The translations under genes were made by a program, and so were the position numbers. Source: Candidatus Woesearchaeota archaeon (GTDB lineage Archaea > Nanobdellota > Nanobdellia > Woesearchaeales > JAZDKJ01). Taken from it: a DNA stretch of 64,000 nucleotides. Under the pieces are notes generated by a model. That model was not told the DNA's origin. It was given only the letters and a program-made list of their open reading frames with translations, and did not search any database. The stretch covers positions 32,001 through 96,000 of the forward strand of contig JAZDKJ010000008.1 of assembly GCA_043803105.1 (NCBI GenBank), read 5' to 3'. The first letter of the stretch is position 1. Every line of letters begins with the position of its first letter. Below are positions 12,225 to 32,401 of the stretch, piece after piece.

Positions 12225-13040
12225 ATGATTAGACGCAATCACACTTCTCTGGATAAAATAATCGCTGGAATAGTTCTATACAAAGCACTAGAGCGAAAGT
12301 TTCAACCGAACCAATACAACCTTTACGGAATGACAGAAGTGTCAAGGCAAGGTGCTGTGGGAGACTTTGAAGACACAACAGACCAGTACAAAAGAGCAAA
12401 AATCCTGCAAGCTGCGCAAGAGTTGCCTTCTGAATACCAGGAAAATCTCCTGACAAAAGATTATGTTGCGCAATTGCTTCTAAAATATATGGCTTCAAAA
12501 GAAGGGAAAGGAGCAATGAAAAAGTATGGGCTAAACAAAGAAGATATAAGGCCGGCTGCAGCAAGACTTGAAGAAGGGGTTGTGGCTGCAACGACAAAAG
12601 ATGTCTATCCTTATCCTGTGATGAAGAACATTGAAGATCGGGACAGATACATAAGGAGCATACAGGAGAGCGAGCCAAAACTCTCAGCCTATGATGTTGA
12701 GACAATGTGGGTAAGGCACGAGCTAAGGCACCTCTCTCAAGACGCAAGGTTGCTTGCAAGTGCAAGCACATCGCTTGAAAACAGGCTCTATGTGGAAGCA
12801 GACAACATTGCGGGATTGTTCAGGGAGTATGTAGAAGAGATGCAGCAGGCAACAGGCCATAAAAAAGAAGTGCTCGCTGCAAAGGCAAGAGCAACATTGG
12901 GTCATTACCTTGGAACAAAGGCAGGAATGATGGACGAGCGCGGAACGGAGTACAGCGGAAAGGAAGAGCTTACATCCATAGCAAAAGAACTAGAAGGAAA
13001 GCTTGGAACAGAAGACTACAACACGCTCTTCAACCGGTAA
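12225..13040 (+). CDS. Hypothetical protein with HExxH (zincin-like) motif
   Basis: HELRH followed ~19 residues later by Glu (LYVEAD). Confidence 0.6.
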   Translation: MIRRNHTSLDKIIAGIVLYKALERKFQPNQYNLYGMTEVSRQGAVGDFEDTTDQYKRAKILQAAQELPSEYQENLLTKDYVAQLLLKYMASKEGKGAMKKYGLNKEDIRPAAARLEEGVVAATTKDVYPYPVMKNIEDRDRYIRSIQESEPKLSAYDVETMWVRHELRHLSQDARLLASASTSLENRLYVEADNIAGLFREYVEEMQQATGHKKEVLAAKARATLGHYLGTKAGMMDERGTEYSGKEELTSIAKELEGKLGTEDYNTLFNR

Positions 13041-13863
13041 TTCTTAAGATTGCGAAGATTCTCAGGATTGTGAGCAGAGGGAATACTATAACCAGAAGGT
13101 AGAGCAGGAACAGAACAAAGTGGCTTGACAAGAGAAAGCCGAGAATAACGAGCACGGCGATTATAACAAGGCAGGGCAGGAAAGTCAAAAGAATCTTCTT
13201 GTAGTCCTTGAAGCCGACAATAAAAGTCTTCTGAAAGATCTTCTTTAGGCCAGTCTTCCTTAGCAAAGGATAAGAAACAAAAGCAAAATATGCTAAGGCA
13301 AAAGTGCAGATGATGAAAAGCACAGTGACAAAATCCCTGCTCACAAGGGGGAAGATACTAAAGGTTGCGTAAACCGAAAGCTTGACCCAGGTGTAGATAA
13401 AGCAGTAAAACAAGGAAAGCCATATGATGTTAACCGCAAGGAACCGAAGCAAATAACTTGCCTTGGTCCTGCGGTCAACGACTCTGTTGCAGAAGAGCCA
13501 TACAAGACCTTGAAAGACACAGTAAACAACCATAGCTAGGGCCATCAACAAGAGCAGGAGCTGGAGGGCTTTGGTGAAGTAATAGGCAAACTCTGGCTTG
13601 TTGAGCATCACATCAACCATTGAGTTCTGATTTGCAACAAGGCCTGAGACATTGCTTATATCAGTCTGTGCAGCATTCATGAGAAAACCGATGTAATCGA
13701 AAATCCTCTGCTGGATGATTGCGAAGGTGAGGAGAAAGGTCATGAAAAAAAGGATGTCTGAGGCAACTGAAAGAATAAAATAAAGCTTGTTTGAAAGCGG
13801 CAGAAGGAAGGTTTGTTTAATATCCTTCAAAATAGTGTTTCTTAATATTTGGGGCTTACGCAT
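13030..13863 (-). CDS. Multipass membrane protein (paralogue of 22199-22954)
   Basis: About 6 TM helices; VYCVFQGLVW...YLLRFLAVNIIW matches VYSLFQGLVW...YFKRFSLLNLCW in the paralogue. Confidence 0.8.
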   Translation of the reverse strand: MRKPQILRNTILKDIKQTFLLPLSNKLYFILSVASDILFFMTFLLTFAIIQQRIFDYIGFLMNAAQTDISNVSGLVANQNSMVDVMLNKPEFAYYFTKALQLLLLLMALAMVVYCVFQGLVWLFCNRVVDRRTKASYLLRFLAVNIIWLSLFYCFIYTWVKLSVYATFSIFPLVSRDFVTVLFIICTFALAYFAFVSYPLLRKTGLKKIFQKTFIVGFKDYKKILLTFLPCLVIIAVLVILGFLLSSHFVLFLLYLLVIVFPLLTILRIFAILRITG

Positions 13864-16800
13864 GTGATCTCCAGGTTTTGGTCGACAACATTCTTTGCTT
13901 CATCTTCTGCATAAACCCTTGCATAGTCACCGCAGCTGTAGATGGTAGAACCTTGATAAACAGATGGTGTTGCAGCGCTAGGAGGTGTCACCGGAATGTC
14001 TGAAGTGCCGAAATAGATAGTCTTCAATGACTTATCTTCCTGCACGAATATGTTAACAGCATAAGTTACATCGCTCAAAAGATTCCCCTTGAAGTTTGTT
14101 GTCTTGTCAACAGTTACAGACTGGCCTGTGTTGACTGCAGTAAAGACAACTTTCAATATTTCTGGAGCTTTGGTATCAACCTGGGAGCCTGTAGTCACTG
14201 CAGAAGCGGTGGTACAAGGCTCATCCTTACATTCGTCTCCACAACAGTATTGGTTCGGAGAACAAACACCTTTTGGATCGTTCTGGCTGTAAGCAAGCCC
14301 ATTGCAAACACAATAATCTGTCAGTATAGTCTTGCCGTCGTTAACGCAGCCTACAGTATCGACACACTTCTTATCAACGCAATACTTGCCTTCCTTACAA
14401 TCACGAGGTGTGGTAGAAACTATTGCTGTGGTCTCGCAATAACAGTCAAACTGATTTGCCTTTGTTGAAGGGTCAGTGCACCTGCCTGCAGACAGAGCAC
14501 CTTCACCGCACTGGGCATTAAATGGAATTACCTGCTCCTGCTTTACACTGTTGTAAACAGTGACTTGTGTTGAGGGAATCCAGCTCGCACCAGCTTGGGT
14601 TGCGTCAAGTATCTGGAAGTGCGCCTTCCAGGTCTGCTTTCCTGAACTTGCGGAACAGGCATCTGCGGTTGAAGCGGACTGATAAGAAACAACATACCAA
14701 CCCTTTGTGTTAGCTGCAGAGGGTGTGTTCGTTCTAAAACGTATCCTGACACCTGCAGTTTCCACTATCATATTCTCAAATTTTGCACGGCTTCCACGCT
14801 GTTGATTGGAACTGCAGGCAGAATCACCACAGATCTGATACATCACTGTGTCGCCATCCTTGGAAAACAATATGTAAAAAGGGAATAGCGTCTTGTCAAT
14901 ATTTGCTGCAATAATATCACCTTCAGTAACAACATCGTTTGGATTTGCGCCTGTACCTGTTGATACAACAGGCTTTGTGGATGAGGCACCAGTAAAATCA
15001 TCAGCCTTTATCTCCCTTAACTTAATTGAGTCAGTGTACCTTCCCTTAGAGTTCAGGAAGATATAATCAGGATACTGAAAGATGTCGCGACCGTTCTGGT
15101 TCTCAATCCAGACCTTCAAGTACTTTGTGTACTCGCAGTTGTTCTGGCCGCTGCAAGACTGGCAATTCAAGCCTTGGCAGTTGGCCGCATCAGGGATCTG
15201 CTGCTGAATATCAACGCTAAACTGCATCATACTGCCAACCCTAAACGCATCTGCACCATAAGGATATTCAGGAGCTGGCTTGTTTTTGAACATAGCCCAG
15301 TTCTCAGTGCCAACGCCAACTGAGCAGCGGTACATCAATGAACCAACATCCCACTTGCAGATAGCTGGAGGCTTGCCACCAACCTGGCCAATCTTACAGG
15401 TGGATTTGTCAATCACAGTCTTCTTGTTGTTATCAATATAAGTCCACTCAAGGATTGCAGTATCGTACCTCACCTGCAAGTCCTGCTTTGTCTTATAGAT
15501 ATCTCCCTGGTCAAAAATCATCTCGCCCGGAAGCAGGTGATTGGGCAGGCCCTCAATAGTAATCTCCTGAGGCTTTCCAGGGCAATCACAACGGCCATTT
15601 TCAAAACCATCCGAGCTACTGCAGGTAAAACCATCAGAGCAGATAAGCCTCAACCTGATATTATTCAATTCAGCTCCAGCAACAAGGCCTACACCAAAAT
15701 GATAATTCCAAGTAGTAAGTCCGCTCGGATTGCTGACAGGATTAAACGACATGAAGCGGCGCTCGCAAGGATAAAGGAAGCCCTCACTCTTGATTGGTGC
15801 AGAGAACTGCTGGTTCAAGAGACCGGAAACATCAAGGTCCCAAGTGCCTGTGAAAGCAAAAAGGCAGACTGAGTGGACAAGCTTCTTATCAGCAAACATG
15901 GACTGCCACAAAGCAGAATTGCCATAACGGCCGGCAACAGAGCGCTGAACACCTTCGCCGGCACTCGTCAAGGCACCAAAAAAGTTGCCGATAGAGCCGC
16001 CAGAAGCAGAGCGCTGGCCAGACAGGCTGTACTTTTCTGTAACGCAGCTGATAAGGTCATAGATAAAGTCACAGACGTAAACAGTTAGCACTGCCCTACA
16101 AGTGCCTGAACTGCCGTCACCAGTAACGAGAATGGTCTGGAAACAATTCTTTATCGCAGTCAACATATTCTTGTAAAGGGTAAGGTAGCCTGTGACTGCT
16201 GCAATGCAAGCGCACTGGATGCTTCTTAAAAATCCTGATGTCGGTTCAACAATATATTCACGCTCCTTATGGCCAAGCTTTTCCTGGATGCGGTTGTAAA
16301 GGTCAAGTGCTTGCGTCTCACTAATGGTTCCGCATTTCTCCAAATCCTTCCAAAAAGAAGAACACCATTGGTCAAGGCTACAGCGCTTGATAGAACCTTG
16401 CCTTTGAATCTCTTTGCTAGGAACTGAGAAATAGGCTGTCACATCAGGGTCTAGATTACCTATCCTGAAAGCATTCTCTTTTGTTATTGGGGTATCATCA
16501 GTGGCCTTGGAGTTCTTGTTTGTCAATTCAGCAACCCTCTTAGTCGTCAGCATATAGCCACGATGCACCTGATAGTCTGTGTTGCCAGTCAATTTGTTCG
16601 GCGGAAGGATGCGATAATATATCGTGTCATAATCCTCGCGCAGATTGAGCTGGTCATAAAGGCACTGATTGCTCACCGTGTCAGTATTACCAGAAGTAAG
16701 CCTTCCCTTGTACTTCACTCCAGAATCAATGATATCAGCCTGCACCTGGCCGGCAGGAGAGCAGATGCCAGCCACCTTGTTCCAGGTGACCTGGCATTTA

Positions 16801-19800
16801 ATCGGGTCTTCAGCATTAGCGAGTTCAGTGACCTTAGCTTCGTCCTCAGCGATGACACAGACATTCTCCTTCAACTCGTTCATGACAGCACAGGCAGAGT
16901 TCCACTCGTTCATGTACTCCTGGCCGCAACACTGCGCATTTGGAGGATGAAGCCCAGAACATGAAACCTGGTCAGGGCCTGTGGCGGCAGTCTGCATCTT
17001 CTTGTAATCAGCATAAATCTTCTGGGCTTGGGCTGTGTTTAGGGTGAACTTTTTTGAAATGGAGCTAACCGCGGTTGTTGTTTGACCCATGGCAGCCCTC
17101 AAAGCATTCTCATCCTTGTAAAGGCCTGAGGGTGTCCAACCAGTTGTGCCGTCCACTGTACCATCATTCCAAACTTCAACATTGTTGCCTGTAACCTTGT
17201 ATCTTCTGGAGCCGCCAGCGTCAGCAACGACATACTCGGCCTTGTTCTTGACATCTGCAGGGGTTTTTGGCGACTCAACCCATTTGCCTGAGTTATCCTG
17301 GGAATATGCCTTGTCATTTTCAATCTTATATTTGGTGTAGCCTTCATAGCCGCTAGAAATTGAGTATTCATTGGCATCAAGGCTCATCCCGTTAGCGGTG
17401 CTGGCGACAGCAGCGCAATCACTGCCTTTCTTGAATGTAGTTCCTGGAATAGTCCTCACAGGGTTTTGCGCTATTTTGGTGCGGATATACATCTCCAGAG
17501 TCGGGACGCTCGGGCAGAAAATCCTGTCGCAGATCCAGCGCATGTAGACCTCAAAGTTGAGGCGCTTCTGGATAGCGTCCCTGCATTTGACGCACTGGTT
17601 GTTCAGCTCAGTCTTTGGCTTGTCTCCCTGTATAGGATAGACCTGGTCACACTTGTTTATCTGGGCAACATCCTTGTCAAAACGATCAGCAGGACTTAAC
17701 TTAGCGACTGCATTGACTGTGCTTATGGCGCTCGCAAACTGGCAGCTCCAACCCTCTTGCAGCCAGAAATAAAAGTCAATAACCCAGGAAGCAGCACAGC
17801 CGTAAAAAACATATTCCTTGATCGTGTTAAGAGGTTTTAGGACAGCATCGATAATGGTGATTGTGGCATTCAGGACATCAATGGAGGCCTTCAAGAAAGC
17901 CTCAGGGATCATGTTGCTAGGTATGCGCCTGTCAATAGTGACCATAACATCAAAACAATGCCTCTGCTGGAGCGTGTAGTTGTAATTCGGAAGCTCAAAG
18001 TCAACGACAAGCATCAAAGGCACCTTTACGCAGCCCAGGCCAGGCACACCGCACTGGCCTATACGGTGATTGCTAAGGTTTGCTTCCTTGTCAAGCATGG
18101 TCATGTTCTTGCCGTGCGAAGGATCCTGGGGCAAGACCTTAAGCATAACATAACCCTGCCTCTTGTTTGTGCTTTTGACAATGTCAGAAATTACCCAGCT
18201 CTTATCCCAGTCCTTTTCCTCTGCAGCGCTCAGGGGCCTATTACGCAAATAGATATCGCGGATAGTGCCATTATTCCAACCGCCCTGCCAGGAGATGTTG
18301 ACAGAAAGCCCTATCATATCCATTCCCTCAATCATCAACCTGGGAGTTAGCATGTTGGGAGTGGGCTTGGAAATGTCGACCTTCCACCAGCTGCCAAGCC
18401 CGCATTGGGCAAGGATAACTGAGCTTTTCTTCTCATCCTTCAATCCTGCATCATCAATCGCGACAATCCTTACATCATTCCTCCAAGCGTCAGCAACCTT
18501 GATTTCCATAGCAGAGACTGGAAGGTTGCGATTCGTGGTTGAGTCAAAATGGTCAACCGCAACATCACGCCTAAGCTTGACATCAACCTTGAAATTACCC
18601 TTGTCATCAGTCTTGGTCATTGAAGATGGGCTGGTGTCATTGTTGATAAAGACAGCAATAGTGGCTTTTTCACTTACCTTGCCTATCAAGGTAACATCAG
18701 GAATGTAGGTCGGAGAGATCATGCCCAGATTGTCCTCAAGAATCTTAGGCGCTTGTGTGTCAAAGAGCGTCTGGTTCTCGAAAACAGCAACATTGCCTGC
18801 GCGGTCTCTTGCTTCAATCTTCAGATTATTTATGCCCTGTGATAATGTCACTGACTCTGAAAAATCACCGCTCAGGTTAATGCTCTTTTCAAAAATGTGC
18901 TGCTTGCAGGAAAGATTCACCTCGCTTGGAGTCTTGTTGTATACAGACCCGCCAGCCATGGTGCGTACAACAAGGTCCTTGGACTTGAGGCCTTCATTGC
19001 AATTGGTATCCACCGCAGCAACATTATAGGTATAGGCCTTGCCTGAATCAATAGTGGCGCCAACATCAACAAACACAGTCTCTTTGGTTGTGGTGATACG
19101 CTTTTGGTTCCTGAAAACAGAATACATCAGGAGATCCTCTTCCTTGTTCTTGCTCCAGACAAGCTTGACAGAATTCGTAGCAAGCGAACCATTAGTCAAG
19201 CCACTAACCTGGCTAGGAGCAAGAAGGTCTTTAGCAGAAGAGACAGTAAAAGTGATGGCAGAAAGCTCATTGACAGAGCCGTCAATCTGCATGGATTGTT
19301 GTGTTGCAACCCTGGAGACATTCTTTATTGTGAGCACAGGCGGGTTAGAGTCAAGAGTCACCTTATACTCCTTGACAGCAACATTGCCGACAAGATCCTT
19401 TGCTTCCAGGCGAACCAGGTTAGTCTGGTCAGAGAGCTCCAGGCCAATCACCTTGAAGCTGCCTGCAGAATCAGCCTTTGCCCAACGCTGGAGCTGATTG
19501 TTGACAAAAACGTTAACGTCTGCCAATGGGTCAGTCTTGCCAGAAAAGGTCAGCAGGCGGTTGTTAAAGAACTCTGGGATTGAGGCTTCAATTGAAGGAG
19601 GCGTAAGGTCAGCGCCTGCGATAAAGGTTCTAGCAGAAGAATTTATGCAATTCTTGTGTGTGTCACACATGCCGACCTTAAAATAATAAATTGTTCCATT
19701 TGAAACAGCAAGGGTGAGGGAATGCTGCTTTGCCAGATTACCATCATTTGCCATGAACCCGAAGCCTTGGGTGGTGCCGTAGAAAACAGCACTTGTTGAA

Positions 19801-20249
19801 GGCTCATCAGTTGCCCATTCCACAACAGCCTGTGCATCAGACGGAAGTTTCAAGGTAATGTTTGAGGCGAGCCTTGGCGGAACCCTATCAGGGGCTTGGG
19901 TTGTTTTCAGGCTAAAAGGATTTCCTGCATTCCTTGTGGTAATGGAAAAACCAGAGGCATTTGTCGAAACAAGCTCGTAAAAATACTGAGTGCTGTTCTG
20001 CAAGCCTTTGATGATGACAGTATGCTTCTTCAGAAGCGAGCTGTTTTCAGCTGACTGATCAAGATTTGTCGATGTTAGGCCAAAATTCACTTTTGCTGCA
20101 GCAGGCTCGGTAGTTGTCCATGCAATGGTGGCGTTGTTGTAAGAGATTACAGGCCTTGCATCATAAGAGACCTCAAGCCTTGCCAGGGCAAATGGGAAAA
20201 GTATCATAAGCTCTGCGATCCACAATGCCATCAGCTGGTTCATCCTCAT
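13842..20249 (-). CDS. Giant (2135 aa) secreted protein: FN3/Ig-like repeats, Cys-rich helical core, Cys-rich C-terminal modules
   Basis: Signal peptide; WTTTEPA and WATDEPS FN3-like repeats; EAKDLVGN/EARDRAGN Big-type repeats; many Cys in the C-terminal two-thirds. Confidence 0.85.
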   Translation of the reverse strand: MRMNQLMALWIAELMILFPFALARLEVSYDARPVISYNNATIAWTTTEPAAAKVNFGLTSTNLDQSAENSSLLKKHTVIIKGLQNSTQYFYELVSTNASGFSITTRNAGNPFSLKTTQAPDRVPPRLASNITLKLPSDAQAVVEWATDEPSTSAVFYGTTQGFGFMANDGNLAKQHSLTLAVSNGTIYYFKVGMCDTHKNCINSSARTFIAGADLTPPSIEASIPEFFNNRLLTFSGKTDPLADVNVFVNNQLQRWAKADSAGSFKVIGLELSDQTNLVRLEAKDLVGNVAVKEYKVTLDSNPPVLTIKNVSRVATQQSMQIDGSVNELSAITFTVSSAKDLLAPSQVSGLTNGSLATNSVKLVWSKNKEEDLLMYSVFRNQKRITTTKETVFVDVGATIDSGKAYTYNVAAVDTNCNEGLKSKDLVVRTMAGGSVYNKTPSEVNLSCKQHIFEKSINLSGDFSESVTLSQGINNLKIEARDRAGNVAVFENQTLFDTQAPKILEDNLGMISPTYIPDVTLIGKVSEKATIAVFINNDTSPSSMTKTDDKGNFKVDVKLRRDVAVDHFDSTTNRNLPVSAMEIKVADAWRNDVRIVAIDDAGLKDEKKSSVILAQCGLGSWWKVDISKPTPNMLTPRLMIEGMDMIGLSVNISWQGGWNNGTIRDIYLRNRPLSAAEEKDWDKSWVISDIVKSTNKRQGYVMLKVLPQDPSHGKNMTMLDKEANLSNHRIGQCGVPGLGCVKVPLMLVVDFELPNYNYTLQQRHCFDVMVTIDRRIPSNMIPEAFLKASIDVLNATITIIDAVLKPLNTIKEYVFYGCAASWVIDFYFWLQEGWSCQFASAISTVNAVAKLSPADRFDKDVAQINKCDQVYPIQGDKPKTELNNQCVKCRDAIQKRLNFEVYMRWICDRIFCPSVPTLEMYIRTKIAQNPVRTIPGTTFKKGSDCAAVASTANGMSLDANEYSISSGYEGYTKYKIENDKAYSQDNSGKWVESPKTPADVKNKAEYVVADAGGSRRYKVTGNNVEVWNDGTVDGTTGWTPSGLYKDENALRAAMGQTTTAVSSISKKFTLNTAQAQKIYADYKKMQTAATGPDQVSCSGLHPPNAQCCGQEYMNEWNSACAVMNELKENVCVIAEDEAKVTELANAEDPIKCQVTWNKVAGICSPAGQVQADIIDSGVKYKGRLTSGNTDTVSNQCLYDQLNLREDYDTIYYRILPPNKLTGNTDYQVHRGYMLTTKRVAELTNKNSKATDDTPITKENAFRIGNLDPDVTAYFSVPSKEIQRQGSIKRCSLDQWCSSFWKDLEKCGTISETQALDLYNRIQEKLGHKEREYIVEPTSGFLRSIQCACIAAVTGYLTLYKNMLTAIKNCFQTILVTGDGSSGTCRAVLTVYVCDFIYDLISCVTEKYSLSGQRSASGGSIGNFFGALTSAGEGVQRSVAGRYGNSALWQSMFADKKLVHSVCLFAFTGTWDLDVSGLLNQQFSAPIKSEGFLYPCERRFMSFNPVSNPSGLTTWNYHFGVGLVAGAELNNIRLRLICSDGFTCSSSDGFENGRCDCPGKPQEITIEGLPNHLLPGEMIFDQGDIYKTKQDLQVRYDTAILEWTYIDNNKKTVIDKSTCKIGQVGGKPPAICKWDVGSLMYRCSVGVGTENWAMFKNKPAPEYPYGADAFRVGSMMQFSVDIQQQIPDAANCQGLNCQSCSGQNNCEYTKYLKVWIENQNGRDIFQYPDYIFLNSKGRYTDSIKLREIKADDFTGASSTKPVVSTGTGANPNDVVTEGDIIAANIDKTLFPFYILFSKDGDTVMYQICGDSACSSNQQRGSRAKFENMIVETAGVRIRFRTNTPSAANTKGWYVVSYQSASTADACSASSGKQTWKAHFQILDATQAGASWIPSTQVTVYNSVKQEQVIPFNAQCGEGALSAGRCTDPSTKANQFDCYCETTAIVSTTPRDCKEGKYCVDKKCVDTVGCVNDGKTILTDYCVCNGLAYSQNDPKGVCSPNQYCCGDECKDEPCTTASAVTTGSQVDTKAPEILKVVFTAVNTGQSVTVDKTTNFKGNLLSDVTYAVNIFVQEDKSLKTIYFGTSDIPVTPPSAATPSVYQGSTIYSCGDYARVYAEDEAKNVVDQNLEITCVSPKY

Positions 20250-22183: not shown

Positions 22184-22198
22184 AACACCCTCTTTTTT

Positions 22199-22954: not shown

Positions 22955-25887
22955 ATAGTATTCACTTCCGCTTTCTTTGAGGTAGAGGATGTTGCTGCAG
23001 CCTGGGCTTGGGGGACATAGCCTGTTGGAGAACCCTTGAATTCAGTGATAATATTACAGACCTCACTAGTCTCTACACCGTCTGCGCTGAATACAGGCTC
23101 CTTAAATTGTATGCAAATCTGTTTGTAGAGGTTGTTAGAGAACTGGACAATCATCGCGCTTCCAGTCTTGGAAAATGTCTTGCCTGGCTGCACATTAATG
23201 TCCTGCTTGAACAAAGTGGTTTGCTTTCCAGGGCCAATCAATACAACATTGAAATTCATCTCCTGCACAACGCTCTGGCCGCTCTTAGAAGGCTTTTCCG
23301 GGTTCTTGACAAAAAGGCTGATCTTGTAGAAAAACTGCTGCTGATAGCCAGAGGCATTAGTGAATTCTATAAGTTGGCGGTCTGCCTCAACATGAGCACC
23401 GATGCCGACCATGTTTGCTCCGTCAGGGATAGTGATATACATGGTGCCTTCAGGAGGCCTTGAAATATAGTGCTGGCAAGCAGTCTCTTCCCAATTGCCG
23501 CTTATGACCTGGCCCAAGACGCTGTAAACAAAGAACTGGTCAGTAGCCCTTCTCCAAGCGCTGTCTTCCATGCCGAGCAAAATGGATAGAGCCCTTCCAC
23601 CCTGAGCAGCCTGATAGACCTGGTTTATTGAGGTGCCGATCATCTGGTTATTGACAAATTGGCTGTAGGTATACTTGTCGCCATTCTGCATAGTGACATA
23701 CCATTGGCCGTTATCGCTTTGGGTGTAAGGCCTGAATTCACCATCGGGACCTTTTATTTGCATTGAGTCAAAAATATCGGTCTCGCCAGGCATTGGCTTT
23801 GCCTCAACCTTCTGATTGTTGATTACGGTAAAGTATTGTCCGCTTTTTGTTTCCAAAACATACAGACCCAAGTAATCATTATAGTAGCTGTTTTTCTCGA
23901 CAAAATCACTCCCCAGATTAATCCATCCTTTATCTTTATCCGCACCTTTAGGGAGGTACTGTGCTGTATAAGTTTCGCTTGTCGCTGAGGCTTTTGCAAG
24001 GTATATAACATCTCCATTGTCACTTGCCCATTCATAATTGCCGTCATAACCAGAGCGTTTCCAGGTGTTTGCGGTGGAATCATAAGACAAGCCGAGCTGG
24101 CTGACGACTGTTTGCTGGTCAGTAGTTAGTGCCAGTGGTGTAGAAGCTTCGACCAAGGCCTTTGCCTTTGCGTCAAAAGCTGCTTTGTCCATGAAAGAGT
24201 TCTTGATATCATTATAATTGGTTCCAGTATATTTTTCTGCTTCCAAAACACCCAAAATATTTCCTTGATTGTCGGTCTTGAGCACTGAACCATCATCAAA
24301 GATCTGATATCTCACATTTGGCTCATCCGCCCTAGTGTAATAAATTCCATCGCTAGATGCGGTAAAGCCATCAAAAGCGTAGGCAGAGGCTTGAGGTTGG
24401 GCTGCTGCTCCTGGCTGAAACGAATTGAGCAAAGCAGAATTCCCTGTTGCATCCTTCACATAGATATTGCCTTTTGAGTCAACAGAATCCACCTGAAGCC
24501 AGCCTTTATCGGTAAGAACATAGCCAGCCTCATTTTCCTGCGAATACTGGTATGTCTTACCATTCAAAAACAAGGATGTTTGGCCATTTTGTGTGATAAT
24601 CGTGCCGGTTCCCATAACATAAACTTCTACCGGGCCTGCGGTTTGTATTTCGTTACCCTGTCCGTCGAGAAAGTGAAATACTCCATCCGAGCCTGCATAA
24701 AATTTTTCTGTTCCTTGTGGAGAAACAACCCCTGGTGGGAGAGAAGGTGTCGGCAATGGCACATAAGTGCTTATTGTTCCGGGAAAGGCTGCTTTCAGCT
24801 GATCTTCAGTTTGATAGGCAGATTTGTGCCATTGACCGTTGATGTCCTTCCAGAACAACAGAGTAGTTCCTGTCTTGTCAGTCCCTTTACCATACTCAGT
24901 AGGTGGTGAACTTTTGTAAGAGCTTGTACCCCAGTCAACAATGAAAGCTGCTGTGGCTGGGGGATTGTACTGACTTTGCCAACCTTGCAAGGCAAATGCA
25001 TCCTGGTCATAAGCTTTCAACATTTTTCCTGTTTTGTCATCCTTATATTGATATTCCCAATGTTGTCCGTTGAATGTATAACTGCCCCAGGTTGTACCCA
25101 CATCCGGAACCAACTGGCCTGAAGTTCCGCTTGTTGATTGTGAGGGCGCAGTGTCAAGCCCTGAATTCGTTGCCCTTGAACTAACCAAAAGTTTGGCCAG
25201 GTCGGGTGCAACGTTAGGATAGATACCGGCAGCATCCATTTTGTTGATTGCATCTGGATTCGCCGGGTTTTTCTGATTGTAACTGAACAGGACTTCTGCA
25301 AATTTTTTATCTTCGCCTGCCTGTCTAAACTGAGTGGTGTCAATAATTTCTGCAACTTTTTGCGCTCCAGCATCAATGTTGTATTGTGCCTGCTTGAGCT
25401 GCTCCACTGAGTAGCCTCCATTGCTTCCTGAGTCTTTAGAGTAGATCTGCAAGAAACCGATCTCACTGTTCCCATTAAGCGGCTTATTCACTCCATTTGA
25501 TTCAACAATAATAAGGCGTTCCAAAAAAAGTTGGTCCTTGTATGGTTGCAAGGTATAGTAATTCTGGTACGCCTTTTGGACAGCCTCTTTCAAACCCGGA
25601 TTATTTGCGTACATACTTTCAATCCGGGAAAGAATCTTCTGATTATTGTAAGGAGTATTTCCAGTGACCTTGAGCATCAGACCTGTTGGAACATTTGCTT
25701 CGTCCGACAGCCGGACATTATTTTGGTCGAAGTACATAGCCCCAAGGCTCAAAATAAAGAACGCCAAGACAAACAAGGCAGCTTTCTGCTGGGTGGGGTG
25801 CTCTCTCTGGATGGATCTCTTCACATCGAGCTTGGCTGATTTCACTAGGTCAAGGAGGAACATTGATCGCTTTGGGATCTTTTTCAT
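22951..25887 (-). CDS. Membrane-anchored protein with SLT (lytic transglycosylase-like) domain, aromatic/Gly-rich middle and Cys-containing C-terminal domain
   Basis: N-terminal TM; LIIVESNG (motif I Glu), IGFLQI (motif II), NIDAGA and SYNQ (motif III) in SLT order. Confidence 0.75.
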   Translation of the reverse strand: MKKIPKRSMFLLDLVKSAKLDVKRSIQREHPTQQKAALFVLAFFILSLGAMYFDQNNVRLSDEANVPTGLMLKVTGNTPYNNQKILSRIESMYANNPGLKEAVQKAYQNYYTLQPYKDQLFLERLIIVESNGVNKPLNGNSEIGFLQIYSKDSGSNGGYSVEQLKQAQYNIDAGAQKVAEIIDTTQFRQAGEDKKFAEVLFSYNQKNPANPDAINKMDAAGIYPNVAPDLAKLLVSSRATNSGLDTAPSQSTSGTSGQLVPDVGTTWGSYTFNGQHWEYQYKDDKTGKMLKAYDQDAFALQGWQSQYNPPATAAFIVDWGTSSYKSSPPTEYGKGTDKTGTTLLFWKDINGQWHKSAYQTEDQLKAAFPGTISTYVPLPTPSLPPGVVSPQGTEKFYAGSDGVFHFLDGQGNEIQTAGPVEVYVMGTGTIITQNGQTSLFLNGKTYQYSQENEAGYVLTDKGWLQVDSVDSKGNIYVKDATGNSALLNSFQPGAAAQPQASAYAFDGFTASSDGIYYTRADEPNVRYQIFDDGSVLKTDNQGNILGVLEAEKYTGTNYNDIKNSFMDKAAFDAKAKALVEASTPLALTTDQQTVVSQLGLSYDSTANTWKRSGYDGNYEWASDNGDVIYLAKASATSETYTAQYLPKGADKDKGWINLGSDFVEKNSYYNDYLGLYVLETKSGQYFTVINNQKVEAKPMPGETDIFDSMQIKGPDGEFRPYTQSDNGQWYVTMQNGDKYTYSQFVNNQMIGTSINQVYQAAQGGRALSILLGMEDSAWRRATDQFFVYSVLGQVISGNWEETACQHYISRPPEGTMYITIPDGANMVGIGAHVEADRQLIEFTNASGYQQQFFYKISLFVKNPEKPSKSGQSVVQEMNFNVVLIGPGKQTTLFKQDINVQPGKTFSKTGSAMIVQFSNNLYKQICIQFKEPVFSADGVETSEVCNIITEFKGSPTGYVPQAQAAATSSTSKKAEVNTI

Positions 25888-26516
25888 TTGTTCACCTTGA
25901 AGACTGCAGGCATCCAGATGTCTTTTTTTCTGTATTTCACATTCTGGCTTTTAAACAAGTCTTCAAAAGGCTTCAATTTTTCGTAAGGAACAATAATGGA
26001 AGATGGGCCTATTCTTTCTGCGTGCAAAACCCTAACCAGACCTTGCGACCGAGAAATATAGGTTTTTCCCTTGTAACGCTTTTGGGAAATATACCCCTCA
26101 AGTGCTCTGGCTAATCTGTCTCTTTTGCTCTTGTCAGGTCCAAAATTAAAATTAATTATTATGAAGGGTTCCAGCAGAAGTTTTTCTGCCCTTACAGTCG
26201 GAATATTGCCATAGATGACAATGCCCTCCTTAAGAATAGTTTCAACGAAATTTCTGTCCAAACCTTCAAAGTTTTTCTTGGAAAAAACCATCTGAACAGT
26301 CTTTTCATATTTTGCTCCCAAATCCTGAGAAATACTGAACATCTTTTTCTCGTCACTTGAACCAATTTTATCAAGTAATACCAGTACATCGATGTCAGAC
26401 CTTTTATCTGCGTCTCCCCTGGCAACACTTCCAAACACTACAACAGCCCTGATACTATCAAAATCGCTTGCCTTTTTTGCTAATTCAAACACCAAATCTC
26501 TAAATTCCTTCTGCAT
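25884..26516 (-). CDS. Minimal nucleotidyltransferase (MNT antitoxin-like) with extra C-terminal alpha/beta domain
   Basis: VVFGSVARGDADKRSDIDVLV. Start reassigned to ATG 26516, because the upstream extension overlaps the HEPN gene. Confidence 0.85.
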   Translation of the reverse strand: MQKEFRDLVFELAKKASDFDSIRAVVVFGSVARGDADKRSDIDVLVLLDKIGSSDEKKMFSISQDLGAKYEKTVQMVFSKKNFEGLDRNFVETILKEGIVIYGNIPTVRAEKLLLEPFIIINFNFGPDKSKRDRLARALEGYISQKRYKGKTYISRSQGLVRVLHAERIGPSSIIVPYEKLKPFEDLFKSQNVKYRKKDIWMPAVFKVNK

Positions 26517-26943
26517 TTTCGTGATATTTTTCTTGCGAAAACCCCATTTTTGAGCTTTTCGTGATATTTTTCTTGCGAAAATCTTTAACAGTTTTTTCAC
26601 ATATCTCAAATATAAACGCAGCCAATTCCTTTGCTTTCTGCAGGTTTTCTCCATTGATTTTGCCACCGTAAAGCTGACCTGGCCTGACCTTATTTTCGAG
26701 GTCCTGAAATTTGGACCATACACTCATTGTTTCTTGTCCGAAAATTACTTTGTTTTGCTCAAGTACTCTCCTGACATCCTGGTGCTTATTTATATGAATA
26801 CCAAACAAAACAGCACAAGATTCAATGGCATGAAACGATGCCTCGAAATATGAATTGATCCTAGTCATGGGTGAGTTATCACTGTTCTCAGCATCCTTTC
26901 TGAACAAAAGATATTTTTTCTCATGGATTTCGAATGATGACAT
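26500..26943 (-). CDS. HEPN-like protein (putative toxin partner of MNT)
   Basis: Helical ~130-aa core with YFEASFHAIE...HINKH...R..QLYG; adjacent to an MNT gene. Confidence 0.65.
   Translation of the reverse strand: MSSFEIHEKKYLLFRKDAENSDNSPMTRINSYFEASFHAIESCAVLFGIHINKHQDVRRVLEQNKVIFGQETMSVWSKFQDLENKVRPGQLYGGKINGENLQKAKELAAFIFEICEKTVKDFRKKNITKSSKMGFSQEKYHENAEGI
26516..26581. repeat. Two identical 26-bp direct repeats (TTTTCGTGATATTTTTCTTGCGAAAA), period 40 bp, each with TTTTCG/CGAAAA palindromic ends
   Basis: Copies at 26516-26541 and 26556-26581, immediately upstream of the MNT start. Confidence 0.9.
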
Positions 26944-26992
26944 CTTGTTTACTCAAATATAATATATCCTCGATAGTATTTTGCTATTGTTT

Positions 26993-29900
26993 TCATGTTG
27001 TTGTTGCAGCAGCCTTCGGCTTTGCAGCAGGCTGAGTTGTGACCTTCTCGAGCTCTTTGCACATATCGTTAGCTGGCTTGAACAAATTCTTGATATTGTT
27101 GAAAGTGTTGGAGAGATCAACAATCACCTTTGAAAACTCTGCCACAAACTTCTGGGCAACGCAGAGGAAATGGCCCTGTGGATTTGTTGTCACAAGAGGG
27201 GTGCAGATGAGCTGGGTGATGCTGAAGACCATGGAGAAGGGATCAGAGAAAATGGTATAGATGTAATTGCCCAATTGCTTGAAGGTGTTTGCGAAAGGTA
27301 TTATCTGGAAAATCTCACCAAAGATGAATTTGCACTCAAGATAAGACTTCTGGTCCTCGCAGACCTTCAATGGAATCCTTTGGTTGGTGCTCTGCTGCAA
27401 GCAAACACCGTAGTTGCATTGGATCTGGCGCCACTGCTGCAATTTGTCGATAATGCCAGGAAGACAACCAGTGGCAAGGCTTAAGACAAGGCTATCCTTC
27501 GGGCTTTGAGGCCAGGGAGCTGACTTGAAGCCGTACTTGTCAAGGAGATTTATTTTCTGGTTGGAAAAATCCCATGTGCCAAGGTTAATGAGGCTGCCGT
27601 GCTGAGAACCTGAGGTTAGGTCACTAAAACTCTTGATATAACCATTATACCAGCTGCCCCACAAAGTAACGTCACAACTCACCATCATGCAAAACTTGTA
27701 GACTGAACCTGTCCAGGTAGTCTTGATCTTATCATTGAAATCAACGCCGAAACGCCATGATGTCGCGGCTGGCTGTGCTGCAGTGGTGGTTTTGGCAATG
27801 ATGTTCAGAGCTTGTCCAATCATGTTACCATAATAGACAATCTGGTTCCAGGTCTTGATTATAGAACACATGGTCTTTGCAAAACTCATGAACTTCTCCA
27901 AAGTGCTAATGAAGCTGAGCTTCACAAATGCGCTGTTCTTCACATCCTCAATTTTCTGCTTAGCCTCAGAAGTGAACTCTCCCAGAGGAAGGTTGTAGAA
28001 AAGCACGGTGACAGTAGCATTCTCTATTTCAGGGTTTTGGACAACAAAAAAGTTCTGTCCAGAAGAAACCTTTGACATAATGGTTAGAGGGCAAGTGAAC
28101 TTAAGCTGTGAAATCTTCATTGCTGTGGCCTTTAGAGTCACCTTAAGGAAAGGATCTCTGCTTCCAGGACCATCATTGAAGAGGCTAATATCACTGATGA
28201 AATCCATAGAATTGTTTGCAAGGCTAACACACTTTCCTTTGTCAAGGCTGATGCCCAAAGTGTCAGCACCGCTAAAGCCCGCAACCAGATGGACGTCACA
28301 GAAAACTCTCTGCTCAATAAGGGTGGTAACCTGTCTGTCAATCTTGTCTGGAGAGCAAGTAACCTCAGAAGTCCAATAATTGGGATTGGTCTCATTCTTT
28401 ATACCCTGCACAGAAACCATTACAGAAACAGTCACCTTGTTGTTTACAAAATCCTTGAAAGTGAAGTAAACAGGAGCCTTGAAAGGACCAGAACGGTCAA
28501 TCGGAGAGCTGTCCCAGACACATTCCCAGATTGTGCCTGTAATCAGTGAGCAAGCACCCTGAAGCCTTGAATCAGTGCTTATGACACGGGAAAAATTAGC
28601 AGAAGCTGTAACTTGCGAAGCGTCGCTAAGATTGGCACGGACTGCAAGCTTATCACCCTTAACAGTGTAGTTGACTCCCGGAACAACAAGAGAGCCGTGA
28701 ACAGTATTGATAACGATGCTCCTGACCTGGACAGGTGATGTGTCAACCTTAACAGTAATTGATTTTGCAGAATCTGCCTTATTGCCGAGGTCATCTGAAG
28801 AATCAAGGCTAACTACCACATCAGCCTCTGTACCTGTAGGAGCAGAAACAAGCCTGTTGTACCAATAGCATGTGTAAGAGCCAGTGCAATTGTCAGCCTG
28901 CTGCACACCCAGGTCAAGGCCTGAGAGGTCCAGGAAAATGTTGTGGTTCACCAGATTGCCTGCATTCTCCTGCACCTCAGCGATAAAAGTAGCATTGTGT
29001 CCAACAATCCATTGGCCATTCAACTGACCCATATTAGTGCGAATAGCTGTAACAACAGGGCCCTGGTTGTCAAAGGTCAGCTGCTGCAAGCTAATGGACA
29101 GAGGGCCAATAGAATTGCCTGCATTGTCGCGGCCGTAAACTTTTATAGTGGGCGTCTTGGTCTGGGAGAGCTGCACATTCAAGTTGAAGCGGACTACAGT
29201 ATTATCATCTACGACAGAAACGCTAATGGGACTCAAGTTGCCTGACTGGCCGTTAATGCCTGAGATGTCTGCTTTAATCGAAGACTGGAAAAGATCTGTA
29301 CCAGAAATATTAACTATCAAAAAGGACTGTATTGCAGAAGAGCCAACAAACTGCAACAGCAATGCATTGTCAGCACGATAGAGCCTCGCTGACCTGATTG
29401 AAGGAGCAAGCTTGTCAACAGTAAAGGAATCACAGCCAGCCCCTGACACTTGGTCAAAGCGGTCAGTAACCTTGCAGCAGATCCTTGACAATCCTGAAAT
29501 ATCAGTAACTGAAAGCTTGAAATTAGAGGATATGGAGCATTGCGAAGGGTCTGAGGGCTCAATCATTTTCAGGAGCGGGCCAGAAAAGTCATCCCGAAAA
29601 AACTCTATCTTCTTTATGCCTGAGCACTTAGAGGTATCGCCTTCGACATCAGCATAGTCTTCAGCAACAGAGTCAACAGTTATGTTCACACCATTAGTCA
29701 GATGCGGTGAGACAGAGATGGACTTAACAACAGGAGCCAAGAGATCTGTCGTTACGTAAACAGCCTCTGAACGCATCATCTTTCCAGAATCATTGAGGAG
29801 CTTTACCTGGTAACTGACTGTGCCAGAACGATAACCAGTCTCATAATACTTGCAGTTAAAAGCTCCACCAGAACCTGTGCAGGAATTAAACCAGAAAGAA

Positions 29901-30148
29901 TTTGCCTGGACCTGGCTTCGATTAATGTCTGCATCATTATCGATCTGGGCATCAACATCAATGGTCAGATTATCAAAATATTTCCTGTAGCCGTGCTTGG
30001 GAGCATTCTCAGACTGGGTATAAATGCCATCCTTCCCGGAAATGCTGTTGACCCGAAGGAACGAGCCTGCAAGGGCAGAAGTAAAACAAAATGGCATGCT
30101 TATGACAAGCACAATCAACCACAATGCTACCGAATGGTTCAAACTCAT
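26993..30148 (-). CDS. Large (1051 aa) secreted Ig-repeat protein with Cys-rich helical C-terminal core (partial paralogue of 13842-20249)
   Basis: Signal peptide; D..AP.V/DNAGN/DDLGN Ig-like repeats; PKDSLVLSLATGCLPG...C...C...C pattern matches PTSGFLRSIQCACIAA...C...C...C of the 2135-aa protein. Confidence 0.8.
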   Translation of the reverse strand: MSLNHSVALWLIVLVISMPFCFTSALAGSFLRVNSISGKDGIYTQSENAPKHGYRKYFDNLTIDVDAQIDNDADINRSQVQANSFWFNSCTGSGGAFNCKYYETGYRSGTVSYQVKLLNDSGKMMRSEAVYVTTDLLAPVVKSISVSPHLTNGVNITVDSVAEDYADVEGDTSKCSGIKKIEFFRDDFSGPLLKMIEPSDPSQCSISSNFKLSVTDISGLSRICCKVTDRFDQVSGAGCDSFTVDKLAPSIRSARLYRADNALLLQFVGSSAIQSFLIVNISGTDLFQSSIKADISGINGQSGNLSPISVSVVDDNTVVRFNLNVQLSQTKTPTIKVYGRDNAGNSIGPLSISLQQLTFDNQGPVVTAIRTNMGQLNGQWIVGHNATFIAEVQENAGNLVNHNIFLDLSGLDLGVQQADNCTGSYTCYWYNRLVSAPTGTEADVVVSLDSSDDLGNKADSAKSITVKVDTSPVQVRSIVINTVHGSLVVPGVNYTVKGDKLAVRANLSDASQVTASANFSRVISTDSRLQGACSLITGTIWECVWDSSPIDRSGPFKAPVYFTFKDFVNNKVTVSVMVSVQGIKNETNPNYWTSEVTCSPDKIDRQVTTLIEQRVFCDVHLVAGFSGADTLGISLDKGKCVSLANNSMDFISDISLFNDGPGSRDPFLKVTLKATAMKISQLKFTCPLTIMSKVSSGQNFFVVQNPEIENATVTVLFYNLPLGEFTSEAKQKIEDVKNSAFVKLSFISTLEKFMSFAKTMCSIIKTWNQIVYYGNMIGQALNIIAKTTTAAQPAATSWRFGVDFNDKIKTTWTGSVYKFCMMVSCDVTLWGSWYNGYIKSFSDLTSGSQHGSLINLGTWDFSNQKINLLDKYGFKSAPWPQSPKDSLVLSLATGCLPGIIDKLQQWRQIQCNYGVCLQQSTNQRIPLKVCEDQKSYLECKFIFGEIFQIIPFANTFKQLGNYIYTIFSDPFSMVFSITQLICTPLVTTNPQGHFLCVAQKFVAEFSKVIVDLSNTFNNIKNLFKPANDMCKELEKVTTQPAAKPKAAATTT

Positions 30149-32241
30149 GTTATCTTTGGAGCCAAAAGCTGCCTGTACGAATTGGAATAATCGCCTATCC
30201 TGCTAATCTGGTCAAGGTCTTCTATAACGCGGTCCTGCTCTGGAACATCAGCCAGGTCGACCTCTATCACGTAAAAGGTTATCTTCTTCTTGGAAAGGTC
30301 AGAAAATGTATAGTTAGCTACGATACCGCCAACAGGAGCAGGGGCATCTATTGTCATAAGTTCCTGAGGGACATAGAAACAATTGCTTGTCAAGAGTGAG
30401 TTTTCGCACCGCTTTTGAGGCCTGAAAATAATAGGCTGGTTCAAAAGCAGGCTAGCCTGGACAGAATAGGCACCGGGCGCAAGAGAAATCTCCTGTGGTG
30501 AATTGTTGAACTGCACAAGGAGAGAGTATTGTTCCTCACCAAGGGTTCCTAGCCTTTGCAGGTTCAAGGTGCCCCACTCGTCATTATCAAGGCCAACAGG
30601 ATTATCCCGCAACACCCATTTGCCAGCAGACTTCACAAGCTTATATTGCTGGACAGAAAGCTCAAGTGTAACCATTGGAACAAGCTCGAAAGTAAGAGAA
30701 TCCTGCTTTCCAATCTCTGTTGACAAGAACTTTGACTGCGAGACAAAACCTTCAGAAAGCACAGAAACCACACCGCCTAAACAGACAGGGAACTGGGCTT
30801 TAATGATACCGGATGAGGTCTTGCCAAGCGAGCAGCTTTCCTCAGCACAGCTGTAAGTAATCTGGGCTGCGTCGACAGGTGATTTATCATTTGCATTTTT
30901 CACAGCAATCGTGATGTTTCCTGAGTTTCTCTTGTCAGGATCACAAAACATGGAGGATTCTGAAGGCACAATACTGGACAATGGAACATAGGTGGTGTTG
31001 AGAGGCTCGTTTGCCCGGATGTTGCCTTCAAGAAAAAACTGGAATATGTAACCGCGATTATTCAATGCCTTAGGATCACTGATTGCCACAAGAACAGGAA
31101 ATGAGACATCATAAAGGAAATTATACCTTTGCACTCCAATAAGACTCACAATGTTGGATGAGGCAGACTCGTGACCACAGACATCGCCGTTGCAGTTAAG
31201 GCTAAAGTAAATCGGCCAGACAGGAAGGTAATTGAACTCGACAGCAAGGCTGGGAAAGGTCTTTTCTGAACGGACAAGCATTCCACTATTGTAAAGGGTT
31301 TCCCTGAAAGCATCTCCTGTTATAACAACAGGATGGTAGTTCATTGATTGGTAGACCTGAAGAGCGGGAATGTCGCGCACAAGGAGGTCTTGCACAAGAG
31401 ACTTAACCTTGGATTGGGACCAGAACTTGCCAGAACCAAACTCAAAATCGGTAGCGGCCATTGGGGGAAGCTTGCTCTCGTCAACTCCAGAATAGCCAAC
31501 AATAAGGTTGAGCAGGTCCTTTTCGAGGAACTTGTAATGAGCTTCCAATTCTGTAATGACTGAAGCCTGCTCATAAATCGACCTTAGGTCTACGGGAATC
31601 CTGAGGAAGAACTCATTCATATCATGCGAATTCCCATCCTTGGTTATCTTCAAAGGATAGTTCACGAAGAAACCAACATCCTTGCTGTAGACACTCGTTG
31701 TTGTCTTAATAGGACCAGACTGTTCAATTGTAAAACCCTGGAAAAGTGAGCTTGAGGCAAGGCAGTCAGCAAGATGAGAGTTCATGTATTCGTCAAGTTG
31801 GCCTTCAATAGATGGCTCGCCTTCGCTCCTGTAAAGATGGGGCCGATTGTAAGAGAACTCGCAGTTCATTGTGCAGGCATTATCACTCTTGAGAAAAAAC
31901 CAATAAGGAGAAACCAAACCTGAGCCTGGGACAAACTCAACAGCAGAAGCACTAGTGGGCTGCAGAGGATTTGTCAGCAAGCCAGATTGCATGGGGTTGA
32001 TGTAGCCTCCACCTAGCCCGATTTTTCTTAAGGCTTCCTCACCATAGCGGGCAATGCAGCTCTCTACGTAAGCGCTGATTGGCTGGAACTCAAGAGGAAC
32101 CTCTTTTACTGTGGGAATCTGTTCCTGTTCAAGGGTTGAAGTTGTGCGAAGGCTGTAGAAATAAAAGACAGTCGCGAAGAGAATCAACAGAACAAGTCCA
32201 AGAATGATGAATACTGTAATCTGCCCTTTCCTCTGCAACAT
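30145..32241 (-). CDS. Large class III signal peptide protein (paralogue of 20246-22183)
   Basis: MLQRKG/QITVFIILGL; start reassigned to ATG 32241, which follows GAGGA. Confidence 0.8.
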   Translation of the reverse strand: MLQRKGQITVFIILGLVLLILFATVFYFYSLRTTSTLEQEQIPTVKEVPLEFQPISAYVESCIARYGEEALRKIGLGGGYINPMQSGLLTNPLQPTSASAVEFVPGSGLVSPYWFFLKSDNACTMNCEFSYNRPHLYRSEGEPSIEGQLDEYMNSHLADCLASSSLFQGFTIEQSGPIKTTTSVYSKDVGFFVNYPLKITKDGNSHDMNEFFLRIPVDLRSIYEQASVITELEAHYKFLEKDLLNLIVGYSGVDESKLPPMAATDFEFGSGKFWSQSKVKSLVQDLLVRDIPALQVYQSMNYHPVVITGDAFRETLYNSGMLVRSEKTFPSLAVEFNYLPVWPIYFSLNCNGDVCGHESASSNIVSLIGVQRYNFLYDVSFPVLVAISDPKALNNRGYIFQFFLEGNIRANEPLNTTYVPLSSIVPSESSMFCDPDKRNSGNITIAVKNANDKSPVDAAQITYSCAEESCSLGKTSSGIIKAQFPVCLGGVVSVLSEGFVSQSKFLSTEIGKQDSLTFELVPMVTLELSVQQYKLVKSAGKWVLRDNPVGLDNDEWGTLNLQRLGTLGEEQYSLLVQFNNSPQEISLAPGAYSVQASLLLNQPIIFRPQKRCENSLLTSNCFYVPQELMTIDAPAPVGGIVANYTFSDLSKKKITFYVIEVDLADVPEQDRVIEDLDQISRIGDYSNSYRQLLAPKIT

Positions 32242-32401
32242 GTCAATCCTCGTTTTTTTTTGCGGCCAGCAAATCAGCAATAAACTGGCCTAGAGCCCTT
32301 TTTGTAAACCTGTATAAAGACTATATATAAAGGTTTTGATTAGTTTGGGCGATAAAGACACTTTGAAAAAATTTATAAAGAGGCACATCAACCGCTGAGG
32401 T

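Follow-up and report, generated by a model that had tools for sequence, protein, structure and literature searches.

What is encoded by the nine genes that lie on the minus strand between positions 13030 and 32241 of a 64,000-nucleotide stretch from a Candidatus Woesearchaeota archaeon (contig JAZDKJ010000008.1, in the following C8, positions 32001–96000; this whole stretch is termed “the window”), which belongs to a 1.56-Mb genome that is 96% complete? Among archaea that have not been cultured, Woesearchaeota and Pacearchaeota rank with the most widespread, and they are thought to be dependent on other cells. The cluster is a real, conserved operon that was previously without annotation. It codes for two sets of A proteins with a pilin-type N-terminus, large exported B proteins, and polytopic membrane proteins D, together with a single signal-anchored protein C, and we see about an even chance that it provides an envelope-anchored surface complex, most likely for adhesion or cell–cell contact. 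This reading builds on the ancient and tight linkage of A and B, the duplication of the A-B-D unit as a whole, the lack of a membrane anchor in B, and the processing site and hydrophobic N-terminus of A.

A conserved operon with duplicated units

In transcription order, the genes are A1, B1, a 147-amino-acid (aa) open reading frame (ORF), a gene for an MNT-type nucleotidyltransferase, C, D1, A2, B2 and D2; all nine are intact and lie where an earlier, sequence-only reading of the DNA had placed them. A1 (30145–32241, 698 aa counted from its ATG) is followed by B1 (26993–30148, 1051 aa, with a Sec signal), C (22951–25887, 978 aa), D1 (22199–22954, 251 aa), A2 (20246–22183, 645 aa), the Sec-signal giant B2 (13842–20249, 2135 aa) and, as the last gene of the operon, D2 (13030–13863, 277 aa). 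At the junctions 30145–48, 25884–87, 22951–54 and 20246–49, the coding strand reads ATGA, which bears out the 4-bp overlaps reported for all four and suggests translational coupling. B2 and D2 overlap by 22 nt, and 15 nt separate D1 from A2.

Gene order was compared in a scan of one genome per species, which returned 128 relatives of A2; 80 loci with flanks of up to 10 kb were kept and their ORFs classified by hidden Markov models (HMM) of the families, the B2 model being made from 29 of the 73 family sequences. All neighbour counts refer only to loci with enough flanking sequence. The order A1-B1-C-D1-A2-B2-D2 recurs across Woesearchaeota genomes, so that the proposal of one conserved operon with two paralogous modules came through the search among relatives that had been suggested for it. 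The gene immediately after A2 is B2 in 70 of 73 loci. Of 45 loci, 32 have a D gene as the next gene after B2 and 38 have one within 3.2 kb; ahead of A2, a D gene is the direct neighbour in 34 of 64 loci and lies within 2.2 kb in 45. Further upstream, B1 is found in 23 of 32 loci and A1 in 18 of 25. A C gene recognised by its HMM lies upstream of A2 in 23 of 40 loci, which is an undercount, since in at least five more loci the C slot is occupied by a signal-anchored protein that the HMM did not recognise. About eight loci possess A2-B2(-D2) without any module-1 gene in the 10 kb upstream.

The A family is present in 195 of 201 sampled genomes of the order (~97%) and in 149 of the 152 high-quality ones among them (192/198 and 148/151, respectively, without the three unpublished genomes G112, G121 and G182). 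From the other orders of the class, 24 of 28 genomes in a phylum-wide sample contain it. Six regions from these orders all show an A2-like A gene followed directly by a Sec-signal giant of 1587–2339 aa (6/6); a D gene was recognised by its HMM after the giant in two of them, and a third region has an unrecognised 249-aa ORF with seven helices in this place. Homologues of the cluster genes sit in records named Woesearchaeota or Nanoarchaeota, and the basic A-B(-D) unit can be regarded as characteristic of the class to which Woesearchaeota and Pacearchaeota belong.

A1 and A2 are paralogous over their full length (BLASTP E 2e-35, 25% identity across 513 columns; alignment of the family profiles by hhalign with a probability of 100 across 619 columns), and D1 and D2 are likewise related (BLASTP E 2e-5; hhalign 99.6 across 248 columns); both pairs had been noticed by the sequence-only reading. 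Its third pair, B1 and B2 (BLASTP E 7e-4), is upheld for the N-terminal Ig-like part, with an hhalign probability of 98.1, while the profiles of the cysteine-containing cores match weakly (34.6); for the cores, the relation is to be read by eye from the translations, which have a common C-21-C-14/15-C-9-C spacing in their most conserved stretch. C was also tried as a third B paralogue and ruled out (hhalign probability ≤6). In an unrooted FastTree phylogeny of 52 A proteins, for which every third A2 sequence of 600–720 aa was taken, A1 (20/20, support 0.999), A2 (25/25, 0.992) and the A proteins of other orders (6/6, 0.999) form separate groups, and hence the duplication predates the sampled Woesearchaeota lineages. 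These organisms thus possess two anciently duplicated units, A1-B1-(C)-D1 and A2-B2-D2.

A third, compact module in the order D-A-B is found in the same genome on contig C6 (372426–377271), its D protein having 247 aa, its A protein 723 aa and its B protein 649 aa, the latter consisting of only a signal peptide and the helical cysteine core, without an Ig-like arm. By its size, this module would be the best set for a binding test.

The same counts bear on the view that there is no complex at all and that unrelated surface and membrane proteins share an operon for co-regulation alone. We consider this very improbable, given A-B adjacency in 70 of 73 loci and in all six other-order regions, the ATGA overlaps, the duplication of A-B-D as a whole unit, and the third unit in the same genome, even though a binding prediction for A1 and B1 ended without a verdict and fused A-B forms did not turn up (for both, see below).

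Predicted processing sites and folds of the A and B proteins

The N-terminus of A1, MLQRKG/QITVFIILG (the slash marks the predicted cut), has the form of a class III-type signal, behind which come a hydrophobic helix and a large predicted extracellular part; A2 starts with MKRG/QLTVFIILG. A start of the type [KR][KR][GAS]-Q-[IVL]-[TS]-[VIL]-F-I-I-x-G is present in 93 of the 108 members of the A1/A2 family, by which the earlier assignment of class III signals to both proteins is supported at the sequence level; of the 15 members that lack the motif, nine run into a contig end. Among the motif-bearing proteins, Phe+5 occurs in 90, Gly+9 in 86 and Tyr+21 in 70; Gln+1 occurs in 93 of 93, but was demanded by the search pattern. 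The six full-length members outside the pattern comprise four with Gln before the helix (GGQ, QAQ, TAQ, GAQ), one with Ala (KGA) and one with Gly (RGG).

According to the portions of PMC4371748 that were consulted, the processing sites of the peptidase EppA in Methanococcus maripaludis are RAQI, KGQV, KGQL and KGQI, with Gln+1 required and Glu+5 present in the pilins as well. The A N-termini fit such EppA-type class III (Gln+1) sites, and what is described there of the Epd pilins resembles A in the succession of Lys/Arg, Gly/Ala and Gln+1, followed by a hydrophobic helix (PMC4371748). Unlike Epd pilins, A proteins are not small but 650–700 aa long, have Phe instead of Glu at position +5 in 90 of 93 cases, and are encoded with no ATPase, platform or small pilin gene nearby in the 80 loci; their cleavage is a prediction. 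They would thus extend the substrates of class III signal processing to proteins of 650–700 aa with Gln+1 and without Glu+5.

A peptidase for this step is available in the genome, and so is an assembly machinery, both of which the sequence-only reading had recommended to look for. A Peptidase_A24 match lies on contig C5 (54252–54569, 54.4 bits; peptidase gene at 54204–55088), and in a type IV pilus locus on contig C10, genes for small pilins and larger pilin-like proteins are accompanied by an ATPase gene and two platform genes. A second ATPase-like gene resides on C6, and no T2SSE or T2SSF match was obtained on C8, in line with the earlier remark that the window contains no assembly ATPase or platform gene. 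In the class sample of 121 genomes, 117 have Peptidase_A24; among the 115 with A, the number is 112 (A and peptidase, 112; A only, 3; peptidase only, 5; neither, 1). As both are so common, their co-occurrence is consistent with processing of A, yet not discriminating.

The genome thus offers the elements for a different explanation, in which the cluster specifies a tip or priming complex of the type IV pilus: A1 and A2 would be large minor pilins assembled by the C10 machinery, and B1 and B2 PilY1-like tip adhesins. In bacteria, the tip of type IV pili is formed by minor pilins and PilY1, and the pseudopilus of type II secretion is capped by GspK, the largest tip subunit, which typically lacks Glu5. 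A, being likewise devoid of Glu+5, can be likened to GspK, and the pairing of a pilin-signal protein with a large, Sec-exported, adhesin-like protein recalls the bacterial tip. Further, the [KR][GA]-Q site of the A N-termini recurs in the small pilins encoded next to the C10 ATPase, which start with M(QK)RAQ(A/T)xxE(F/Y)L and thus combine Gln+1 with Glu+5, and the 21 N-terminal residues of A are conserved well above the needs of a plain anchor. The genomic context speaks another language: homologues of the genome's own ATPase, platform, peptidase and small pilin genes were absent within 10 kb of the 80 loci, bar one weak ATPase match (E 7.6e-6). In the A2 model, helix 3–30 is followed by a low-confidence linker at 31–40 and a helix at 41–67, i.e., a break and a variable linker instead of one continuous pilin helix. 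No sequence or fold relation to the bacterial tip proteins was recognised; Pfam gave no match to a PilY1-type propeller, vWA or DUF2341, and the B1 model comprises Ig-like domains and a helical core. The tip complex would also leave the polytopic D without a role. On the whole, we hold a pilus tip to be unlikely.

Beyond the helices, the A2 model shows a novel alpha/beta domain up to about residue 400 and then two beta-sandwich domains. In the fold searches, most of the signal came from the C-terminal beta-sandwich, so that residues 40–400, for which no pilin-fold match was seen, were hardly probed. A1 matched no Pfam or NCBIfam family, and a word-index search with A2 residues 1–240 returned just the same close A family. 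No substrate-binding-protein fold or family was recognised in A, which is relevant with regard to the bindosome of Sulfolobus solfataricus, in which, as far as described in PMC4371748, large substrate-binding proteins with class III signals join the envelope. The likeness to the cluster consists in large, non-pilin surface proteins with pilin-type processing sites (PMC4371748). The bindosome, however, needs an ATPase/platform operon of its own (bas), none of which is linked here, and has neither a giant partner nor a D-type membrane protein.

Four shorter or cysteine-rich proteins of the genome match only the ~240 N-terminal residues of A, and some of them adjoin other giants. On contigs C12 (58–15311) and C3 (9916–13080), the first ~240 residues of A are fused to cysteine-rich extensions (877 aa with 39 Cys; 1054 aa with 46 Cys), and one protein of this set neighbours giants of 2509 aa (111 Cys) and 1222 aa (58 Cys). 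In addition, four tandem paralogues of 506–544 aa on C12 (37826–44695) start with MVSKRGDSYTVLYG and a subsequent hydrophobic helix; this family may have a class III-like N-terminus with Asp or Ser in place of Gln after the Gly.

For B1, the model predicts an array of Ig/FnIII/PKD-like beta-sandwiches at residues ~30–720 and an all-helical core with invariant cysteines at ~724–1040. The core is the most conserved part of B1, with a peak at residues 851–950. B2 is composed of N-terminal Ig/Fn3-like domains, a conserved cysteine-containing core and a variable C-terminal part of 500 aa; its conservation peaks at residues 1351–1550 and is lowest in the last 500 residues, and Pfam returned weak beta-sandwich matches only. 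Full-length B2 orthologues range from about 890 to 3330 aa. Residues 951–1100 of B2 (window 17250–17400) are nearly absent from 28 orthologues (column identity 0.04–0.13) and form a lineage-specific insertion within the conserved core region. The label “Cys-rich” given to the B proteins describes a moderate enrichment: their cysteine contents are 2.6% (B1) and 3.1% (B2, 66 Cys), compared with a median of 1.2% and a 90th percentile of 2.8% in the genome. In a hydropathy analysis of B1 and B2, no membrane anchor was detected, the sole strong hydrophobic segment in each being the signal peptide.

Searched against 1.84 billion proteins, a profile of the B1 core matched 1412 cluster representatives, of which 678 reached 1e-30, and the best 150 matches all have a B1-like architecture or are shorter pieces. 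A look-up of the core in the Atlas gave a top score of 0.80, which is the level of chance, and a TrbL-bearing cluster (0.75) was dismissed as noise.

Large exported proteins without an anchor next to a smaller anchored partner could also constitute a general structural coat, S-layer-like or its anchor, without a specific adhesion role. Similar to SlaA and SlaB of the Sulfolobales, where a large, anchorless secreted protein is accompanied by a smaller, anchored beta-sandwich partner, D would sit in the membrane as the base, A would serve as stalk or anchor, and B would be the canopy. The near-universal occurrence of the family as a core feature of the class agrees with this, as does the density of glycosylation sequons in B1, which is just over the 90th percentile of the genome (1.43 versus 1.29 per 100 aa). 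A is, however, anchored N-terminally through its class III-type signal and SlaB C-terminally, B has a cysteine-containing helical core, and the sole structural link is a generic beta-sandwich match. Furthermore, the genome possesses a separate candidate S-layer protein, namely an 808-aa frame on C6 (358589–360838), which lies some 12 kb away from the third D-A-B module and contains two S_layer_C (PF05124) hits of 28.2 and 27.3 bits, both exceeding the cut-off; S_layer_C was also matched on C13, S_layer_N nowhere in the genome, and neither of the two in B1 or B2 by Pfam. The variation of B2 in size and the poor conservation of its C-terminal 500 aa are at odds with a lattice component. So are the several further A-like genes per genome, some of them beside giants, to which a diversifying adhesin repertoire is better suited than a single lattice. 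A coat thus seems an unlikely function.

The D and C proteins and the inserted genes

A simple hydropathy scan gave seven segments for D1 and six for D2, both of which had been described as six-helix membrane proteins; for D1, six to seven helices are predicted. None of 32 family members (16 each of D1 and D2) matched a Pfam family. Structural neighbours of D1 in the Atlas are of the GPDPase_memb, DUF975, UPF0259 and BrkB types, with TM-scores of 0.5–0.64, and serve as leads only, from which no function can be given.

The sequence-only reading had placed a lytic transglycosylase at the centre of the cluster, and this did not survive the comparison of C with its relatives. The stretch in question (25267–25554, minus strand, residues 112–207) is a borderline match to Pfam SLT (PF01464), with 18.1 bits in hmmscan, below the cut-off of 21.3, and 22.4 bits in a six-frame search, above it; Glu-Ser, G-F-L-Q and Y-N motifs are readable in it by eye, and it found no match among PDB sequences. 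It faces gaps in 11 of 11 aligned orthologues, and a scan of 23 C orthologues revealed SLT (E ≤ 0.01) in none and no other Pfam family either. An alignment of 12 orthologues showed that the N-terminal and middle parts of C are variable and just the C-terminal ~220 residues conserved; this domain, at about 23038–23640, includes W778, R779, D783 and C804. Two clearer SLT domains exist elsewhere in the genome. The SLT-like stretch is, as far as the alignments tell, a lineage-specific add-on, specific to the C of the present genome, and the operon is evidently not organised around a cell-wall-cutting enzyme. Residues ~260–730 of C (window 23700–25100) are rich in short aromatic- or Gly-rich units, such as NGQWYVTMQNGDKYTY and DGSVLKTDNQGNILG, which recall cell-wall-binding repeats; no Pfam repeat family matched them at E ≤ 0.1.

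Large proteins with SLT domains are known from these archaea. Castelle et al. 2021 describe the family fam00969 and propose that extracellular, murein-type transglycosylase domains function in contact with bacteria (PMC8204110, in the parts available to us); compared with the fam00969 proteins described there, the SLT stretch of the present cluster is to be seen as an add-on of C. The combination of an SLT protein, a VirB6-like polytopic protein and a pilin had also brought conjugation or type IV secretion into consideration. This candidate was dropped for want of a conserved SLT and of a VirB4-type ATPase: among the 45 other window ORFs of at least ~120 aa, Pfam identified no such enzyme, a search in which no VirB4-specific model was run, and the T2SSE-family matches of the genome fall outside the window.

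Two further genes interrupt the operon between B1 and C. The gene at 25884–26516 (minus strand, ATG at 26516) encodes an MNT-type nucleotidyltransferase with matches to Pfam Polbeta (3.8e-13, 49.8 bits) and NTP_transf_2 (7.2e-10, 39.6 bits), both above their cut-offs, whereas its score against NCBIfam MntA, 48.4 bits, is under the cut-off of 60; it is probably antitoxin-like. The 147-aa ORF 5' of it (26500–26943, minus strand) had been labelled HEPN, but matched no HEPN family in Pfam or NCBIfam, and neither the ORF nor its orthologue in locus L008 had a HEPN match at E ≤ 1; the same search detected HEPN in neighbouring inserts of L008, L071 and L086. Of the two labels, MNT is therefore retained and HEPN left unmatched. 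The pair recurs in just one of the 80 loci, L008, from the closest relative (E 2e-56 for the 147-aa ORF). It is hence to be viewed as a lineage-specific insert and not, as had been proposed, as a part of the machine.

In different genomes, verified HEPN and MNT pairs and also PIN genes are located at the B1/C, C/D1 and D1/A2 junctions. Toxin-antitoxin-type inserts of this kind are found at L008:5058–6204, L071:2308–3430, L086:263–921, L009:3641–4024, L010:8631–9023 and L021:8755–9165, and at 25884–26943 in the window. Small genes of the toxin-antitoxin type seem to land in this operon repeatedly.

Possible function and genomic surroundings

A, B, D and the conserved part of C are all without a family in Pfam, NCBIfam or the PDB. 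When profiles of the A2, C and B1 families, and B2 as a single-sequence phmmer query, were run against the PDB, only chance-level or generic Ig matches resulted. Likewise, a description of the operon was not found in the portions of the literature that were searched, including PMC4858521, PMC13705601, PMC9258230, PMC8204110 (with Supplementary Table 3 outside the comparison), PMC11537232 and PMC4371748; the earlier statement that this is not a named system agrees with these results. Closest in taxonomic terms is “Module 98” of Castelle et al. 2021, a set of 51 lineage-specific, mostly unknown families from Pacearchaeota and Woesearchaeota that are predicted to be membrane-bound or extracellular (PMC8204110); in the text consulted, families are described, not an operon or an A-B-D unit. 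The cluster lies outside type IV filament loci, Epd pilins and SLT-centred systems. By analogy, it resembles a known kind of arrangement, in which class III-signal surface proteins are paired with large exported partners.

A surface complex of these proteins can be envisaged as follows. Prepilin peptidase probably cuts A before Gln+1, and the conserved hydrophobic N-terminus would retain A either within the membrane or as part of a short stub resembling a pilus. B, exported by the Sec route, probably docks via its conserved, disulfide-rich helical core, whereby its Ig-like arm would project outward. D, with its six to seven helices, is probably the membrane partner that helps A to hold B. As an accessory protein, C would be signal-anchored and have an outer part that differs from lineage to lineage and here includes the SLT-like stretch. 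From this architecture and from the presumed lifestyle of these archaea, we infer a role in adhesion or host contact.

Several observations weigh against this assignment. The near-universal presence of the family suits a general envelope component equally well as an adhesin. A complex prediction for the A1 ectodomain (residues 36–698) and the B1 core (720–1051) scored 0.16 against a mark of 0.32, the fold of the core itself being uncertain, and is neutral with regard to binding. The helical core of B1 was modelled at low confidence, and no fold was recognised for it. The low-confidence linker at residues 31–40 of the A2 model, to which the membrane helix is joined, is poorly conserved as well, which would fit a plain anchor and is silent on the cargo of A. 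D has no informative relatives. Fused A-B forms were sought among proteins of 1130–3225 aa and none was found, which is weak evidence.

A bolder proposal, to which we assign a low probability, is that A-B-D is a class-wide host-contact organelle of Woesearchaeota and Pacearchaeota, unrelated to the described secretion and pilus systems. A and D would hold B, whose disulfide-locked core would engage or insert into the envelope of the partner, and the organelle's adaptation to bacterial or archaeal hosts would come from outer parts that vary, here for example the SLT-like stretch in C. If the cluster provides an attachment or envelope complex of whichever kind, A, the B core and D would be targets for antibodies, labelling in cryo-electron tomography, proteomics and host-range comparison.

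Upstream of the operon, a TTTATATATA box at 32322–32331 (minus strand), read from the sequence ~80 nt ahead of the A1 ATG, is a possible archaeal TATA element, and inspection of the sequence revealed GAGG 8 nt before the same ATG. The operon is flanked by genes on the plus strand, i.e., an MscS channel gene at 32402 and a gene without assigned identity that ends at 13040. Close to the cluster, the archaeal ribosomal proteins S8e and L10e, Trm1 and NMD3 are encoded. Farther along the window, positions 48001–52000 have a GC content of 0.33–0.37, compared with ~0.44 elsewhere, and harbour two zinc-ribbon proteins and a DDE transposase (IS240-type, 50801–51766); this segment is probably a mobile insertion. 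Finally, positions 52743–60441 of the window contain a glycogen cluster, comprising an amylo-alpha-1,6-glucosidase, a GH57 protein, a GT4/GT5 starch-synthase-like enzyme and a eukaryote-type glycogen synthase (PF05693, E 4e-146).

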